Origin: a virus
Taxonomy: Duplodnaviria; Heunggongvirae; Uroviricota; Caudoviricetes
Direction: 5' to 3' (one strand)
IMG/VR virus record: IMGVR_UViG_2675903562_000006
Length of the DNA stretch: 5,297 bases
The translations under genes were made by a program, and so were the position numbers. Of the stretch, positions 1-5,297 are shown one piece after another; position 1 is the first letter of the stretch; each line of letters begins with the position of its first letter. Under the pieces are notes generated by a model. It made no database searches. It saw only the letters and a list, made by a program, of their open reading frames with translations, and was not told where the DNA came from.

Positions 1-338
1 TGTTTAATAAAACTTTGCCCGCGAAGCAGACGATCAACCGTGCGAAGTGCTTCGTATAATGTGAAATCCTGCCCGAAGTGATTGTCGCCGCAGTTCAATG
101 CAAAAATGCGGTTTCCGGTAAACGGATTGCGTGGGCATTTGTGGATCACGATTCCAGCTTTCTCAATCAGCCAGGCATGCTCGCCGATTTGTTTTACAGC
201 GTGGCCATCCGGTGTTGCGTGCGTCTCGTTCAGGTTATAGCGACTGTTACTACGTGATGCACTGGTAGCGACGTGGTGTACATGGCGTTCTACGCTATTA
301 CGAAATTTGGAGTATGGATTATTAGCGTTTTTTTTCAT
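1..338 (-). CDS. Hypothetical early-operon protein, partial (N-terminus in window, continues past position 1)
   Basis: ATG at 338 is the first start after the in-frame stop of the upstream gene (360-362). The frame stays open to the window edge and is not in the ORF track for that reason. My translation begins MKKNANNPYSKFRNSVERHVHHVATSAS... and contains a His/Cys-bearing segment (HKCPRNPFTG...NCGDNH). Only a weak GAG Shine-Dalgarno about 9 nt upstream. No family recognised. Confidence 0.45.
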   Translation of the reverse strand, partial: MKKNANNPYSKFRNSVERHVHHVATSASRSNSRYNLNETHATPDGHAVKQIGEHAWLIEKAGIVIHKCPRNPFTGNRIFALNCGDNHFGQDFTLYEALRTVDRLLRGQSFIK

Positions 339-359
339 GATGGTGCTCTGTTCATTGTT

Positions 360-563
360 TTAGCTGTTAGCCAAAGCGTCTTTTAACATCGCCACAAGGT
401 TTACTTCAGGCTTTTCCATTTTGGCGCGTTTGGGGCGGATAATAATTCGACCGTCAGCCAACATCTTTTTGCATGTATTAAGAGGGATACCTGTTATCTC
501 TGCATATTTCTGCAGGGATACATAGGGGGCATTCACATTGATATTGATGGTTATACCTGACAT
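360..563 (-). CDS. Small HTH DNA-binding protein, Cox/Apl/AlpA-like excisionase-regulator (67 aa)
   Basis: Strong AGGAGG Shine-Dalgarno 8 nt upstream of the ATG on the minus strand. The segment PYVSLQKYAEITGIPLNTCKKMLADGRIIIR resembles, from memory, the HTH region of P2 Cox (PYQEFAKLIGKSTGAVRRMIDKGKLPVI). Position matches the early operon of a P2/186-type switch. Confidence 0.7.
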   Translation of the reverse strand: MSGITININVNAPYVSLQKYAEITGIPLNTCKKMLADGRIIIRPKRAKMEKPEVNLVAMLKDALANS

Positions 564-579
564 CCCACTAGCCTCCTGA

Positions 580-786
580 TCAGGAAGATTTGTTTTGTTC
601 TTTCTGGGTTAGCTCTAGGCCGCGAAGGAAGATCATGCGCGCCATGTTAGAGGATGAGCGTTGTTCTTTAGCTGCCATTTCATCAATGACGGCTCGCTCC
701 TCGAGGGACAGCCGAAGTGCCAGTCTTGGACCTGTGGCGGTGTTACGCGGAATGCGTGATCTGGTATCGTGAAGAACTTGTTTCAT
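580..786 (-). CDS. Ribbon-helix-helix (CopG/MobC-like) DNA-binding protein, 68 aa; possible Cro-like regulator
   Basis: RLALRLSLEERAVIDEMAAKEQRSSSNMARMIFLRGL fits an RHH pattern (basic beta-strand followed by two helices). Coding-like codon use, while the antisense ORF 590-772 is Arg/Ser-rich junk. An in-frame stop at 802-804 fixes the start at 786. No Shine-Dalgarno, so possibly a leaderless or short-leader mRNA. Confidence 0.6.
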   Translation of the reverse strand: MKQVLHDTRSRIPRNTATGPRLALRLSLEERAVIDEMAAKEQRSSSNMARMIFLRGLELTQKEQNKSS

Positions 787-862
787 AGTGGTATATTGTG
801 ATCATCTAATAGCTCGTGAAATCATTTTGGTATCAAAAAAGATACCTGTCAAGGTTTTTTGT
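787..862. promoter_or_regulatory. Divergent/face-to-face switch region with putative operator half-sites
   Basis: Perfect inverted repeat GGTATC-N6-GATACC at 829-846, with further GGTATC/GGTATA copies at 762-767 and 790-795. Minus-strand TTGACA (-35) at 847-852, next to the repeat. Plus-strand extended -10 TGgTATATT at 789-797. The inferred transcripts would be convergent, as in the P2 Pe/Pc and 186 pR/pL arrangement. Confidence 0.4.
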
Positions 863-1267
863 ATGAAAAATGATATTGGTCAGCGGTTGCGTGAGGAAAG
901 GGAAAGATTGGGACTTAGTCAAGTTGCCATGAGCGACATTGGTGGAGTCAAAAAGCTAACTCAGCTTAGATATGAGAAAGGAGATAGCTTTCCTGATGCT
1001 GCGTATTTGGCAGCGCTGTCTCGTTTTGGCCTTGATGTTCAGTATGTTGTGTTGGGAATTCACTCACCTGAAACTTATAACGATGATGAGCAGGAGTTGA
1101 TTACTCGCTTTCGAGCAGCTTCGTTAGATGTGAAAAACGCGGTGATTGGGGCTTTAAAAGGTGCGATCAGTGAAAAGGAAACTCAGCCATCAGGACGTGA
1201 GTTAAATATTTCTGGTGGTAATAACCGTATCGCTGGTCGTGACTATAACGAAACTAAGGGTAGGTGA
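863..1267 (+). CDS. XRE-family (Cro/C1-type) HTH transcriptional regulator, 134 aa; candidate immunity repressor
   Basis: IGQRLREERERLGLSQVAMSDIGGVKKLTQLRYEKGDSFPDAAYLAALSRFGLDVQYVVLG is a typical HTH_3/XRE domain near the N-terminus. AAGG Shine-Dalgarno 8 nt before ATG 863. The ORF track starts at 788, but that adds 25 aa with no Shine-Dalgarno and overlaps the control region. No S24 peptidase domain in the C-terminal tail. Confidence 0.7.
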   Translation: MKNDIGQRLREERERLGLSQVAMSDIGGVKKLTQLRYEKGDSFPDAAYLAALSRFGLDVQYVVLGIHSPETYNDDEQELITRFRAASLDVKNAVIGALKGAISEKETQPSGRELNISGGNNRIAGRDYNETKGR

Positions 1268-1282
1268 TAGTAGGGAGGTGAC

Positions 1283-1933
1283 ATGGCCGTCAACTCAAAC
1301 GGTTCAAACAATCGCGTTGCTGGGCGTGATTTTCACGAAAAGAATATTCAGATAGAGCGATATGATGGTTCTCATACCGTCAATATCGCAATCCCTTCGA
1401 ATAATGATGATGACGATCGCCCTTTGCTTAAGGCTCAGCGTAAGGAGCTAAATAGCTTGGTTGCTGCTATTGCAGAAGCTAGCAATACTGAAGCGTTTAT
1501 TATTTGGCAAAAAGTACATGCGGAGATTGGTGTAGCTGGTATTGATGATATGACAGTAAATCAATATAAAACAGCGGAGAGTTTTCTGCATGCAATGCTT
1601 GAGCGATGTAAAGATCATGATGCCTGTAAGGCTCTTGTAAGTTTATTACTACGTAACAGTGAAGACTGTGGACTTCGACAAAAACTTCTGCGGTATTGCC
1701 ATATCAATTTCGGTACAGGACGTTTAAACGATCTTACTCGTTCTCAGTTACAGTCTGCATTGTCGTGGTTAGAGCAACAATCGGCATCAAGCCACACAGA
1801 GAGTTCGACCTTACCAGAAGTCCGACTTCGTGCTTCAGAATTAATCCGACTTTATCCAAAAGAAATAATATTCTTTATCTGCGTAGGGGTTTTGGTAGGC
1901 GGTGTCATTTCTAGGGCGTTTTTTAATTTGTAA
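1283..1933 (+). CDS. Hypothetical tail-anchored membrane protein (216 aa, single C-terminal TM helix)
   Basis: GGAGG Shine-Dalgarno at 1274-1278. The N-terminal ~190 aa are hydrophilic and the C-terminus IIFFICVGVLVGGVISRAFF is one hydrophobic helix. The N-terminus carries the NNRVAGRDFHE motif also found at the end of the upstream regulator. No catalytic motif recognised. Confidence 0.65.
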   Translation: MAVNSNGSNNRVAGRDFHEKNIQIERYDGSHTVNIAIPSNNDDDDRPLLKAQRKELNSLVAAIAEASNTEAFIIWQKVHAEIGVAGIDDMTVNQYKTAESFLHAMLERCKDHDACKALVSLLLRNSEDCGLRQKLLRYCHINFGTGRLNDLTRSQLQSALSWLEQQSASSHTESSTLPEVRLRASELIRLYPKEIIFFICVGVLVGGVISRAFFNL

Positions 1934-1962
1934 TCTTACTTGAGCTAAATTGAGGTAATGAT

Positions 1963-2310
1963 ATGAAAGTAAAAAAGGTTCAACTATTAGTTACTTTTTT
2001 ATCTATGTTTTCTTTTTCCGCCGTCGCAATGCCTTTTAAAACTATTGAACGTGAGAGTTTCAATGGGGTATGGCCATTTAATACTGATGAGGTTCAATTA
2101 CAGTGTCTTGATGGTAATCCTTATGTGATGAATTTTGACGATAATAAGTTATATGCACTTACAGGTTTGGCTCGAATAAAAGGTAAAACATTTGGTGCGT
2201 TACCGTTAGATAACAATAATCCATTTTGGCTAGATAATGATGCCGCCCCAGGGTTAAAAAAGAGCCTGGGGGATGTCACTAAGGCTGCATTTGATTTATG
2301 TGATAAGTAA
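1963..2310 (+). CDS. Small secreted/periplasmic protein (115 aa) with Sec signal peptide and two Cys
   Basis: GAGGT Shine-Dalgarno 8 nt upstream. Signal peptide MKVKKVQLLVTFLSMFSFSAVA with an AVA signal-peptidase I site and no lipobox. The precursor has two Cys (residues 48 and 113), compatible with one disulfide. The stop lies 5 nt before the integrase ATG, so the two are probably translationally coupled. Confidence 0.7.
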   Translation: MKVKKVQLLVTFLSMFSFSAVAMPFKTIERESFNGVWPFNTDEVQLQCLDGNPYVMNFDDNKLYALTGLARIKGKTFGALPLDNNNPFWLDNDAAPGLKKSLGDVTKAAFDLCDK

Positions 2311-2315
2311 CTAAA

Positions 2316-3317
2316 ATGTCGGTTCGTAAGATTCCATCAGGTAAATGGCTTTGCGAATGTTATCCCTACGGGGCATCGGGAAAACGCATTCGTAAACAGT
2401 TTGCGACAAAAAGTGAGGCGCTCTCTTATGAGCGCCGTTTAATGAATAGTAGAGTTGGAGACGAGTTTCAAGATGGTTCTGGTCCTCGTCTTTCTGAGTT
2501 GATTGCTCGTTGGTTTGAGATGTACGGTAAAACCTTGTCCTCTGGTGCAGAGCGCAAAGTCAAACTTGAGGCGATTTGTTCCAGGCTGGGAGATCCATTT
2601 GCTTCTCAGTTTGACAAAAATATGTTTGCCACTTATCGGGAAAGAAGGTTATCAGGAGAGTGGAATCCCAAGGGGAAGAAAAAACTTAGTGAAGCAACCG
2701 TTAATCGCGAGCAGTCATATCTACATGCTGTTTTTGCCGAACTGAAGCGCCTTGGGGAGTGGTCTGGTGAAAACCCCCTGACTGGTATTCGCAAGTTTCG
2801 TGAGGAAGAAAAGGAACTGGCGTTTCTGTATGTAGATGAGATTGAACGCCTTCTGATTGCGTGTGATGAGTCACGGAATAAAGATTTGGGGGTTGTTGTC
2901 CGTATTGGGCTTGCGACTGGTGCTCGGTGGAGTGAAGCAGAAGGGTTAAAGCAATCTCAAGTACTGCCCGGTCGAATCACATTTGTTAAAACTAAAGGAA
3001 AGAAGAACCGCACTGTACCGATTTCACCTCAATTGCAGGCTATGCTTCCCAAAAAACGAGGAGCGCTATTTTCACCATGTTATGAGGCTTTTGACGCTGC
3101 AATTAAGAGAGCGAAGATCGAGCTTCCTGATGGGCAATTAACTCATGTGCTACGTCACACGTTTGCCAGTCATTTTATGATGCGGGGCGGAAATATTCTT
3201 GTGTTGCAAAAAATACTGGGGCATAGCGATATAAAAATGACTATGCGTTATGCTCATTTTGCTCCAGGTCATTTAGAGGCTGCTGTTGAATTGAACCCTT
3301 TTGACAATAGAGGGTAA
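2316..3317 (+). CDS. int: Tyrosine site-specific integrase, P2/186 family (333 aa)
   Basis: The C-terminal catalytic region ATGARWSEAEGLK...RITFVKTKGKKNRTVPIS...THVLRHTFASHFMMRGGNILVLQKILGHSDIKMTMRYAHFAP matches, from memory, the P2 Int box I/box II region including the R..H-x-x-R..Y pattern. The N-terminus GKRIRKQFATKSEA resembles P2 Int GKRIRRKFDKKSEA. The gene points at the att fragment, as P2 int does. Confidence 0.9.
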   Translation: MSVRKIPSGKWLCECYPYGASGKRIRKQFATKSEALSYERRLMNSRVGDEFQDGSGPRLSELIARWFEMYGKTLSSGAERKVKLEAICSRLGDPFASQFDKNMFATYRERRLSGEWNPKGKKKLSEATVNREQSYLHAVFAELKRLGEWSGENPLTGIRKFREEEKELAFLYVDEIERLLIACDESRNKDLGVVVRIGLATGARWSEAEGLKQSQVLPGRITFVKTKGKKNRTVPISPQLQAMLPKKRGALFSPCYEAFDAAIKRAKIELPDGQLTHVLRHTFASHFMMRGGNILVLQKILGHSDIKMTMRYAHFAPGHLEAAVELNPFDNRG

Positions 3318-3344
3318 AAAGTGGCGATAAAAAGTGACAATAGA
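3302..3344. repeat. Direct repeats TGACAATAGA (3302-3311 and 3335-3344) in the int-proximal att arm
   Basis: Two exact 10-bp copies 33 bp apart, spanning the int stop. Candidate arm-type integrase binding sites. Confidence 0.35.
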
Positions 3345-3383
3345 TTCAAATGGCGTTGTATAGAGCCATTTTCAAAGTTAATA

Positions 3384-3403
3384 AAATCATAAGGTTATGA
3401 TTT
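3384..3403. repeat. AT-rich inverted repeat AAATCATAA-GG-TTATGATTT next to the att core; possible IHF-like site
   Basis: Perfect 9-bp inverted repeat with a 2-bp spacer. AATCATaaggTTA at 3386-3398 is within one mismatch of the IHF consensus WATCAANNNNTTR. Confidence 0.3.
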
Positions 3404-3423
3404 ATAAATGGTGGTTGATAGTT

Positions 3424-3478
3424 TTTAAAATCCCTCGGCGTTCGCGCTGTGCGGGTTCAAGTCCCGCTCCGGGTACCA
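3424..3478 (+). other. Attachment-site core: 3' 55 nt of a tRNA-Leu(UAA) gene (anticodon loop to CCA), not an intact tRNA
   Basis: TTTAAAATCCCTCGGCGTTCGCGCTGTGCGGGTTCAAGTCCCGCTCCGGGTACCA contains the anticodon loop with TAA, a long variable arm, the T-arm GCGGG/TTCAAGT/CCCGC, the acceptor 3' strand, discriminator A and CCA. From memory it matches the 3' part of enterobacterial leuZ. No complementary 5' acceptor strand (G/ACCCGGA) exists upstream, so the gene is truncated at the anticodon loop, which is typical of an att core. Confidence 0.7.
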
Positions 3479-3520
3479 TGGGAAAGACAAGAATAATCAA
3501 AGCAATAAGCAGTGTCGTGA

Positions 3521-3543
3521 AACCACCTACGGGTGGTTTTTTT
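3521..3543 (+). terminator. Rho-independent terminator
   Basis: AACCACC-TACG-GGTGGTT is a 7-bp stem with a 4-nt loop, followed by TTTTTTG. It sits 43 nt after the tRNA 3' end and downstream of int. Confidence 0.6.
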
Positions 3544-3578
3544 GTGCCTGAAATTCACGCCCTGTGCATATCCTGTGC

Positions 3579-4460
3579 TCACGGGGTGCAATGAGCCGCA
3601 ATCTCCAGCCTGGCAATGCCGAATCGAACGTGTCGCCTCCAGCATAGAGAACCAGGCCGCTTTGCCTGTTTTCCGGTACTCTTCCGGGAAGGGTGGCCTG
3701 CTGAGCAAGTTGTAATGCTCTGGCCGCCCTTAGTACAAAGTTGCTTAATTCGTGCAATCACCTCATCTCTGTACTTCTGGTGTCCGCGCATAGCCCTTGG
3801 ATGGGCAATTCTGAAACAGATTGTATTACCTGTTTTGAACTCCCACAGCTTCCCCGGAATGACTGAAGAAGTCTCATAACCGCCCAGCTCAGTAAGCACC
3901 TGTTTAATGATGTAGTCTGTTCTCCGGGCTCCGGATGCAAAGATCATGAAATCAGGCTCAAGGTGTTTAATTTGTACCGCCAGCAGCTTCAGCGAGGCTA
4001 ATATGACTTCCTGCACTTCATTTTGAGGGCGATTGAGAGGGGTCAGTCCGTCGTAATCCCACGCCAGTAGATTGGCATACACGATAGCCTGAGGAGGAAT
4101 ATTAAGCTCCCGGGCCAGCCTGAAATGATATTGCGTGAAGCGGCTACGTGATTTGAGGTTGGTGGTGCCATCATTTTGTACCGGAAGATGTTTCCTGTAA
4201 CGATCTACAGCTTCTTCAACCACCTGCCCGATGGTGACGTCAGGCATAAGTCCCAACACCCGTGATATCGTATTCTTACCATTCAGCGTATTCCAGCCTG
4301 CGGTTTCACGTCTAACCAGCATGATTTTTACCGGTGAATGCCAGTATTCTTCAAACGGCACGGGTAAAAAGACGCCTGAGTATTTATCTTCATTCAGGTT
4401 AAATGACTGGGCGTCAACTTCCTGTAATATCCGTTTGTACGCGTCTAATAGCCTTTCCAT
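3579..4460 (-). CDS. Hypothetical protein, 293 aa, divergent from the downstream integrase; function unknown
   Basis: Long ORF with a protein-like N-terminal ~240 aa. The last ~55 aa are low-complexity and Arg/Ser/Cys/Gly-rich, and overlap GC-rich repeat-bearing DNA. Weak, unverified resemblance to uracil-DNA-glycosylase superfamily motifs (KIMLVRRETAG near the N-terminus, AHPRAMRGH near the C-terminus). No Shine-Dalgarno check was made. Confidence 0.55.
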   Translation of the reverse strand: MERLLDAYKRILQEVDAQSFNLNEDKYSGVFLPVPFEEYWHSPVKIMLVRRETAGWNTLNGKNTISRVLGLMPDVTIGQVVEEAVDRYRKHLPVQNDGTTNLKSRSRFTQYHFRLARELNIPPQAIVYANLLAWDYDGLTPLNRPQNEVQEVILASLKLLAVQIKHLEPDFMIFASGARRTDYIIKQVLTELGGYETSSVIPGKLWEFKTGNTICFRIAHPRAMRGHQKYRDEVIARIKQLCTKGGQSITTCSAGHPSRKSTGKQAKRPGSLCWRRHVRFGIARLEIAAHCTP

Positions 4461-4540
4461 TCTTCAATCCTGCCCCGTAATAAAAACACCTTCAGATATA
4501 TATTATTTTCATGATATCAATCAGATATATGAGGATAAAT

Positions 4541-5297
4541 ATGCAAAAATCCTTCCGATTCACCAATTCATCCATCAAAGCCCTTCCGGCAAACACAGAT
4601 ACCCGATCTACAGAGCTTGAGGTATCCGATACTGAGGTCATTGGCCTCAAATGCCTCTCAGGTCGAACGGGTAACAAACGTTTCCTCCTGCGCTACACAT
4701 TCCACGGTACCAAAAAAAGTATCAGTATTGGCAGATTCCCTGAAATTGATGTGGGGACAGCCCGTCAGATAGCTCGTCGTCACAAGGAGGCGATTGCACT
4801 GGGAAATGACCCTAAGGCAGAACGCGATAATTATCGTGCTATGCCAACGCTTAGTGAGTTTTTTCACCAGACCTATGTTCCGTTCATCAAACGCCATAAA
4901 AAGTCCTGGGATAAGGATGTTCAGCGTTTCACGCAATACATTGAACCTTGTCTGGGGAAGATACGTTACTGTGACCTTCGGGCCCGGGAAATCCAGCAGG
5001 TGCTTTTCGACATGCTTGAGGGTCGTATTCACGGGCAGCAATATGCGCCGTCTACCTGTAACAGAGCCCTTGCTATTCTGAAAACGATGGGGCGTTATGC
5101 GTTGCGACAGGATGTGCTGGAAAAGAATGAAGCCGATAAGATCCCTTTACTGAAAGAGAATAATCAGCGGACGCGCTTTTTTGATGCTGATGAGATCAGG
5201 TGTCAACGCCAAGATTATTGGCCGTTTTTCGCCATTTTTAATGTCCGCTATTGGTCATTAATGTTGTCCGCTTTCCGCCATTTCATCATCACTGATT
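4541..5297 (+). CDS. int: Tyrosine integrase of the P4/DUF4102 (arm-binding N-domain) type, 3'-truncated by the window end
   Basis: GAGGA Shine-Dalgarno before ATG 4541. My translation MQKSFRFTNSSIKALPANTDTRSTELEVSDTEVIGLKCLSGRTGNKRFLLRYTFHGTKKSISIGRFPEIDVGTARQIARRHKEAIALGNDPKAERD has the characteristic N-terminal layout of P4-like and genomic-island integrases. The frame is open to position 5297, which is why it is missing from the ORF track. Confidence 0.8.
   Translation, partial: MQKSFRFTNSSIKALPANTDTRSTELEVSDTEVIGLKCLSGRTGNKRFLLRYTFHGTKKSISIGRFPEIDVGTARQIARRHKEAIALGNDPKAERDNYRAMPTLSEFFHQTYVPFIKRHKKSWDKDVQRFTQYIEPCLGKIRYCDLRAREIQQVLFDMLEGRIHGQQYAPSTCNRALAILKTMGRYALRQDVLEKNEADKIPLLKENNQRTRFFDADEIRCQRQDYWPFFAIFNVRYWSLMLSAFRHFIITD

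Follow-up and report, generated by a model that had tools for sequence, protein, structure and literature searches.

A Hybrid Attachment Site in leuZ, Very Probably Formed Where a P2-Like Prophage and an Independent Defence Island Lie in Tandem

Introduction

The 186/HP1-type integrases of P2-like phages tend to target tRNA genes, HP1 itself targeting tRNA-Leu, and their arm repeats share the consensus tgccGCCActt (PMC3448106). In Escherichia coli the tRNA-Leu(UAA) gene leuZ is already known to receive mobile elements. A leuZ-associated island, "Island 9", has been described in APEC O78 strain 789, as has an integrative element at leuZ in O145:H28. A conserved prophage occupies leuZ in O121:H19, where four other sites hold two prophages in tandem (PMC8767318). 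The 3'ETS-leuZ spacer is also of regulatory interest as an experimentally established sponge of the small RNA RyhB (PMC6191717).

Here we describe a 5,297-nucleotide stretch of DNA from an IMG/VR virus record (IMGVR_UViG_2675903562_000006; hereafter the window) in which a 3' fragment of leuZ lies between two different tyrosine integrase genes. In our assessment positions 3424-3553 are very probably a hybrid attachment site, at once the attR of a P2-like (Xuanwuvirus) prophage and the attL of an independent defence island, the two elements lying in tandem in the 3' half of leuZ. The main value of this reading is in annotation: it places the seam of two separate mobile elements at the leuZ hotspot, with borders at 3424-3553, and it turns the second element from a P4 satellite into a defence island with an apparently disabled integrase.

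Organization of the Window

The features of the window, from left to right, are as follows.

1-338, minus strand: 3' part of a DUF4761 early gene of the P2-like prophage (FORC_031 annotation; 87-91% DNA identity to P88/Xuanwuvirus phages)
360-563, minus strand: Cox-like excisionase/repressor gene (phrog_575, E 1.2e-27; annotated Cox-like in phage 520873)
580-786, minus strand: Arc-like repressor ORF of the lysis-lysogeny switch (phrog_3431, E 9.8e-29; annotated in phage 520873)
863-1267, plus strand: CI-type helix-turn-helix immunity repressor (HTH Pfam matches, phrog_8, annotation)
1283-1933, plus strand: 216-aa prophage membrane protein of no known function (phrog_5825, E 4e-103; a membrane protein in the annotation of other strains)
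1963-2310, plus strand: DUF2511 protein, likely a moron gene (PF10709; phrog_2950)
2316-3317, plus strand: int1, intact HP1/186-type tyrosine integrase of the P2-like prophage, 333 aa (Int_N and Phage_integrase domains)
3319-3355, plus strand: repeats on the phage P arm that are candidate arm-type sites for Int, AAGTGGCG at 3319 and AAATGGCG at 3348 (motif search)
3424-3478, plus strand: 3' 55 nt of leuZ, anticodon loop to CCA, the common core of prophage attR and island attL (sequence identity; direct copies in FORC_031)
3479-3553, plus strand: island-borne allele of 3'ETS-leuZ with the leuZ terminator hairpin at about 3521-3547 (aligned to K-12 b4759)
3579-4460, minus strand: first island gene, of a family with a uracil-DNA-glycosylase-like fold and no known function, with an aberrant 3' end (homologues of about 246 aa, some named UDG-like in UniRef)
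4541-5200, plus strand: int2, first 220 codons of the Arm-DNA-bind_3 (P4-architecture) tyrosine integrase of the island, catalytic domain missing (comparison with the full-length FORC_031 gene)
5201-5297, no strand assigned: istB-proximal end of the IS21-family element ISEc62, inserted into int2 (about 99% identity to ISEc62 ends; terminal TGTCAACGCC starting at 5201)

The tRNA fragment begins 106 bp downstream of the end of int1, which points at it, while int2 starts 1,063 bp downstream of the fragment and points away, the intervening 1 kb being occupied by the minus-strand gene at 3579-4460. As the initial annotation had recognized, the fragment is the 3' end of a tRNA-Leu(UAA): all 55 positions agree with leuZ of E. 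coli, from the base that opens the 7-nt anticodon loop (TTTAAAA, anticodon TAA) through to the CCA, and shuffled controls gave zero matches. ARAGORN detected no complete tRNA in the window, as expected given that 3424-3478 is a fragment, and Rfam at E<=1 detected no complete RNA gene. The same annotation had taken these 55 bp as the attachment core; they are an exact leuZ 3' end, but the unit that is repeated is longer, at about 130 bp (3424-3553), and takes in the 3'ETS-leuZ spacer and its terminator. The spacer is distinguished by C3488, a 2-bp deletion and A3529, an allele that is identical in strains carrying the island alone. The terminator hairpin was seen by folding prediction; a promoter/terminator scan of 3250-4700 missed it and returned no promoter-like site.

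The Prophage and Its Integrase

The gene for the CI-type repressor opens a co-directional string that int1 closes; int1 lies at the end of the P2-like prophage, next to the CI/Cox switch. Within this string the 216-aa protein, encoded between the CI-type repressor gene and int1, has a hydrophobic C-terminal tail and resembles the flagellar regulator Flk weakly, scoring below threshold (NCBIfam NF007987, 58 bits where 353 are required); its gene is possibly one of lysogenic conversion. PGAP calls a 45-aa ORF at 635-772 (plus strand), but PHROGs and the record of phage 520873 favour the overlapping 68-aa Arc-like repressor on the minus strand. In strain FORC_031, which carries nearly the same sequence, the prophage is a decayed remnant of about 24 kb that retains genes for tail sheath, tube, tape-measure, gpE, ogr/delta, a replication endonuclease and the Cox-like and CI-type switch, with int1 at its right end.

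Int1 had been assigned to the P2 family, pointing at the fragment. The domains that Pfam assigns to it (Int_N PF24624 and PF00589) agree with this, and the label can be made more precise as HP1/186-type: along its whole length it is 58% identical to HP1 Int (E 2e-139). Among proteins of solved structure, HP1 Int (PDB 1aih, E 4.6e-75) and P2 Int (PDB 5c6k, E 3.6e-54) are its best matches. The motifs ATGARWSE, HVLRHTFASH and MTMRYAH are identical in the two proteins in pairwise alignment, and we take their residues to fill the catalytic Arg-His-Arg-Tyr roles assigned from the HP1 Int structure.

The arm-type motif occurs four times in the window against 0.46 occurrences expected. Three related candidate repeats lie on the P' arm beside the intact leuZ (about 20625-20655 of comparison locus L001), and these AARTGGCG-type repeats on both phage arms fit the 186-type consensus, which suggests that they may be bound by Int1. 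Two further AAATGGCG motifs, at 5230-5237 and 5276-5283 on the minus strand, fit the same pattern; they lie within the terminal repeats of the ISEc62 end and are taken as coincidence.

The Repeat Copies and What They Bracket

The window is E. coli chromosomal DNA. Its positions 1-5200 are identical to FORC_031 except for one mismatch at 3254, and the same near-identity holds in other ETEC-type strains, including B2C and several E-numbered isolates. The initial annotation proposed finding the intact tRNA-Leu and further copies of the core and mapping what they bracket. In FORC_031 this yields three copies in direct orientation, each adjacent pair enclosing one element.

Copy 1: inside the intact leuZ, in the glyW-cysT-leuZ operon
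Copy 2: the copy seen in the window
Copy 3: just upstream of yecA

Copies 1 and 2, from the intact leuZ to the window copy, bracket the P2-like (Xuanwuvirus) prophage; copies 2 and 3 bracket an island of about 29 kb that ends at yecA. This layout is read in FORC_031, and for the genome of the window the other two copies are deduced from the genomes identical to it over 1-5200.

Strains carrying neither or only one of the elements supply the parental junctions. K-12 has the empty site, with leuZ, 3'ETS and yecA contiguous in a comparison of the flanks. E. coli 55989 holds a complete 35.7-kb P2-like prophage between leuZ and yecA, enclosed by two copies, and the P arm beside its yecA-side copy is the P arm of the window (the phage attL was taken from this strain, the record of phage 520873 ending before the att site). 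ETEC M9682-C1 carries the island alone, about 25 kb between leuZ and yecA, and there the intact leuZ is followed by exactly the 3'ETS allele of the window and then by its right flank. The junction shared by FORC_031 and the window consists of phage P arm, core, island allele and island, and it is exactly the recombinant expected when prophage and island both occupy leuZ.

Distribution Among Escherichia coli Genomes

We surveyed the leuZ site in 5,426 complete E. coli genomes using junction queries of 600-800 bp, with at least 80% coverage required in one place.

Empty site, leuZ joined directly to yecA: 3,792 of 5,426
Intact leuZ joined to the island: 501 of 5,426
int1 end joined to yecA, the integrase end of the prophage alone: 491 of 5,426
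Tandem junction, prophage and island: 29 of 5,426
Unclassified at the leuZ site: about 610 of 5,426

Genomes left unclassified presumably carry either other elements or these two in diverged form, and up to four copies of the repeat occur per genome. The region to the right of the fragment has no counterpart in at least 4,283 of the 5,426 genomes, and from the census it is therefore accessory DNA and not core chromosome. The comparison with strains lacking one or both elements, which had been proposed at the outset, thus returned all of the simpler arrangements. The two observations that had been named as telling against tandem or composite elements at one att site were a fragment repeated nowhere else and a right flank of conserved chromosome; the genomes instead show three copies in FORC_031 and thousands of empty sites. 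The alternative of a fortuitous match, or of a decayed tRNA pseudogene with no part in integration, beside ordinary chromosome, is refuted, and we give it virtually no weight: the lack of a full tRNA in the window is all that speaks for it, against a 55-nt identity of which none is expected by chance, a repeat that runs on through 3'ETS-leuZ, and a right-hand region missing from most genomes.

The census also bears on whether both integrases might belong to one composite element moving as a unit, with the internal tRNA fragment a relic. The 29 tandem genomes come from several lineages and include a version about 10% diverged, in JNEC-KY204, which is what such an element might leave behind. Against this, about 500 genomes carry each half by itself, joined cleanly to its surroundings, and the att repeat is complete in the internal copy. 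Of the two outermost copies, moreover, one adjoins the phage P' arm and the other an island arm, so that no single integrase has matching arms. We regard the composite element as very unlikely. Two integrative elements at one tRNA attachment site, as the initial annotation suggested, account for the three core copies in FORC_031 and for the occurrence of each element by itself at leuZ.

The Island and Its Interrupted Integrase

In FORC_031 the island starts with the minus-strand gene and int2, and its cargo comprises DUF2787 and DUF726 proteins, a WYL regulator, type I restriction-modification genes, two GmrSD-like proteins, the anti-phage helicase-nuclease Hhe, IS elements and a group II intron. 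The minus-strand gene encodes 293 aa in the window against about 246 aa in its family, which is widespread in gammaproteobacteria; the FORC_031 annotation treats it as a pseudogene. Three variants of the island keep the gene together with int2. Searches placed it in no Pfam, NCBIfam or PADLOC family, and homology yielded just the label "UDG-like". At L006 23796-28552 the M9682-C1 island has one more gene for a tyrosine recombinase, accompanied by an HTH gene and a large hypothetical one, possibly another element nested within the island.

The full-length Int2 of FORC_031 has 399 aa, with PF13356 (Arm-DNA-bind_3, which we take to be the family formerly called DUF4102) at E 2.9e-14 and PF00589 at residues 213-377 with E 4.1e-23. 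Int1 and Int2 are 25% identical, in the catalytic domain only. The downstream integrase had been described as of the P4/DUF4102 type, about 1 kb away and pointing outward; its domain architecture and position are indeed those of that type, but the relationship to P4 is distant, with just 23% identity to P4 Int and 27 bits against a cut-off of 434 for NCBIfam PRK09692, which places it outside close kinship with the P4 Int/CP4-57 family.

It had further been speculated that a P4-type satellite might lie beside its P2-type helper, as a functional pair at one attachment site. The arm-binding and catalytic architecture that Int2 shares with P4 Int would suit this, as would a P2-like neighbour. When all 13 P4 proteins were compared by tblastn with the island and prophage loci, the sole match was that integrase at 23% identity; across the whole island there were no homologues of P4 alpha, sid, delta, psu, epsilon, cI or vis. 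The cargo is instead type I restriction-modification genes, GmrSD-like proteins, Hhe, a WYL regulator, IS elements and a group II intron, the 501 island-only genomes show the island without the prophage, and P4 has an annotated core of 20 bp where the block here is 130 bp. A helper-satellite pair is thus effectively refuted and extremely improbable, and with it falls the idea of a physical tandem of P2 helper and P4 satellite; the element is better described as an independent defence island.

In the window int2 is cut at 5200/5201 by the ISEc62 end, and it is at 5201 that the window departs from FORC_031. The insertion lies at nt 661 of int2, istB end first, and its junction was found in none of the complete E. 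coli genomes searched. In M9682-C1 a second ISEc62 copy sits near nt 1050 of int2 in the opposite orientation (L006 33747-35713), an independent insertion. With the catalytic domain cut off, Int2 is predicted to be inactive in the genome of the window, and since int2 is interrupted the island would be fixed in place there. The two independent insertions suggest that inactivation of int2, and with it immobilization of the island, recurs.

Integration Model

The hybrid attachment site can be explained if each element brings its own tyrosine integrase and its own leuZ segment from anticodon loop to CCA, followed by the 3'ETS spacer and terminator. Because the attP of each element would carry the tRNA 3' half, 3'ETS and terminator, insertion would rebuild the end of an intact leuZ operon and displace the previous copy downstream. 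Two successive integrations would give the order leuZ, prophage, leuZ' (the window), island, leuZ'' and yecA, and either order of arrival, island first or prophage first, leads to the same junction structure. Strand exchange probably took place at or near the anticodon loop, as in HP1; since position 3488, where the alleles differ, goes with the island, strand exchange would fall within 3424-3487. Excision of the prophage would be carried out by Int1, probably with the Cox-like protein, through copies 1 and 2, and excision of the island by Int2 through copies 2 and 3, a route presumably closed in the genome of the window, where a broken int2 would leave the island locked.

The 3'ETS-leuZ Copies and RyhB

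The att repeat includes the full 3'ETS-leuZ and terminator, with a separate allele in each of the P2-like phage, the island, the JNEC-KY204 island and the lambdoid phages mEp390 and Fostie (window 3479-3553; L001 20541-20612; L002 32579-32655; L009 7251-7325; L010 about 1556-1625). Every copy borne by an E. coli element has AGCAGTGTCGT unaltered, whereas differences are seen in the spacer on either side of it and in the terminator stem-loop. A simple duplex prediction pairs this block with RyhB nt 35-46; such a prediction ignores intramolecular structure and over-extends helices, and only the 11-12-nt core complementarity is used here. The constancy of AGCAGTGTCGT could equally reflect recent shared ancestry or a need for homology to attB.

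In the window the co-directional string of cI, the 216-codon ORF, the DUF2511 gene and int1 leads straight into the orphan copy, with no promoter-like site between. We think it unlikely, though conceivable, that integration of such elements swaps the 3'ETS-leuZ allele behind the working leuZ and adds orphan copies, changing the dosage or allele of the RyhB sponge. Were this so, and were the orphan copies both transcribed and set free as RNA, the elements inserted at leuZ, prophages and islands alike, would influence how the host regulates iron and envelope stress. Any wider potential of the locus resides solely in this duplicated regulatory spacer RNA within the repeat.

Comparison With Known Systems

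Of the described systems HP1 is among the closest to the prophage side. Both HP1 and the window-type phage belong to the Peduoviridae. In the HP1 attP the homologous tRNA-Leu(UAA) 3' half begins at the same point of the anticodon loop, and int lies upstream and points at the core, as here. HP1 differs in its host and in that its attP runs on into a tRNA-Lys gene, whereas the E. coli phage continues into 3'ETS-leuZ and its terminator. The arm-type repeats of the window, candidates found by sequence, fit the 186-type consensus. Among the P2/186 family prophages of E. coli, P88 and phage 520873 have the same order of cox-like gene, CI-type repressor and int next to att; the left 3.5 kb of the window is 96.9% identical to Xuanwuvirus phage 520873, and complete relatives carry P2-type capsid, tail and ogr genes. 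The integrases of P88 and Peduovirus are, however, just about 39% identical to Int1, and P2 itself integrates outside tRNA genes (PMC3448106).

On the island side, P4 and islands with P4-type integrases, for example at leuX, resemble the present one in the arm-binding and catalytic architecture of Int2, its position at the tRNA-proximal end and its outward direction. They differ in that a 0.9-kb gene lies here between att and int, and in the homology block, which covers 130 bp from the anticodon loop against the 20-bp core of P4. An attP with the leuZ 3' half and a 3'ETS-like spacer is also present in the lambdoid phages mEp390 and Fostie and in ZF40, a Pectobacterium phage, and the integrases of these phages form a third lineage, about 20% identical to both Int1 and Int2. 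The same sublocation in leuZ is thus targeted by at least three unrelated tyrosine integrase lineages (19-25% pairwise identity), with homology always starting at the anticodon loop (integrase genes compared: L010 1682-2692, from mEp390; L011 1663-2673; L013 567-1592; window 2316-3317 and 4541-5200). Convergence of unrelated integrases on one tRNA sublocation and the gathering of tandem elements at hotspots are both illustrated by this locus, and both are well established.

Tandem arrays of prophages or islands at one att site in E. coli, such as those of O121:H19, likewise show repeated att copies with one element per pair, but the neighbours there are two related phages, whereas the integrases here are unrelated at 25% identity. 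A further close match is the known leuZ island or integrative element of APEC O78, O145:H28 and ETEC strains. It occupies the same place between leuZ and yecA, the island junction of the window matches strain 789, where "Island 9" ends, and the O145:H28 genomes have the tandem junction; cargo varies by strain and the window copy has its own ISEc62 insertion in int2, yet nothing essential differs. With leuZ a documented hotspot and tandem arrays at tRNA attachment sites a familiar arrangement, the seam described here is real but ordinary, and of a kind already known.
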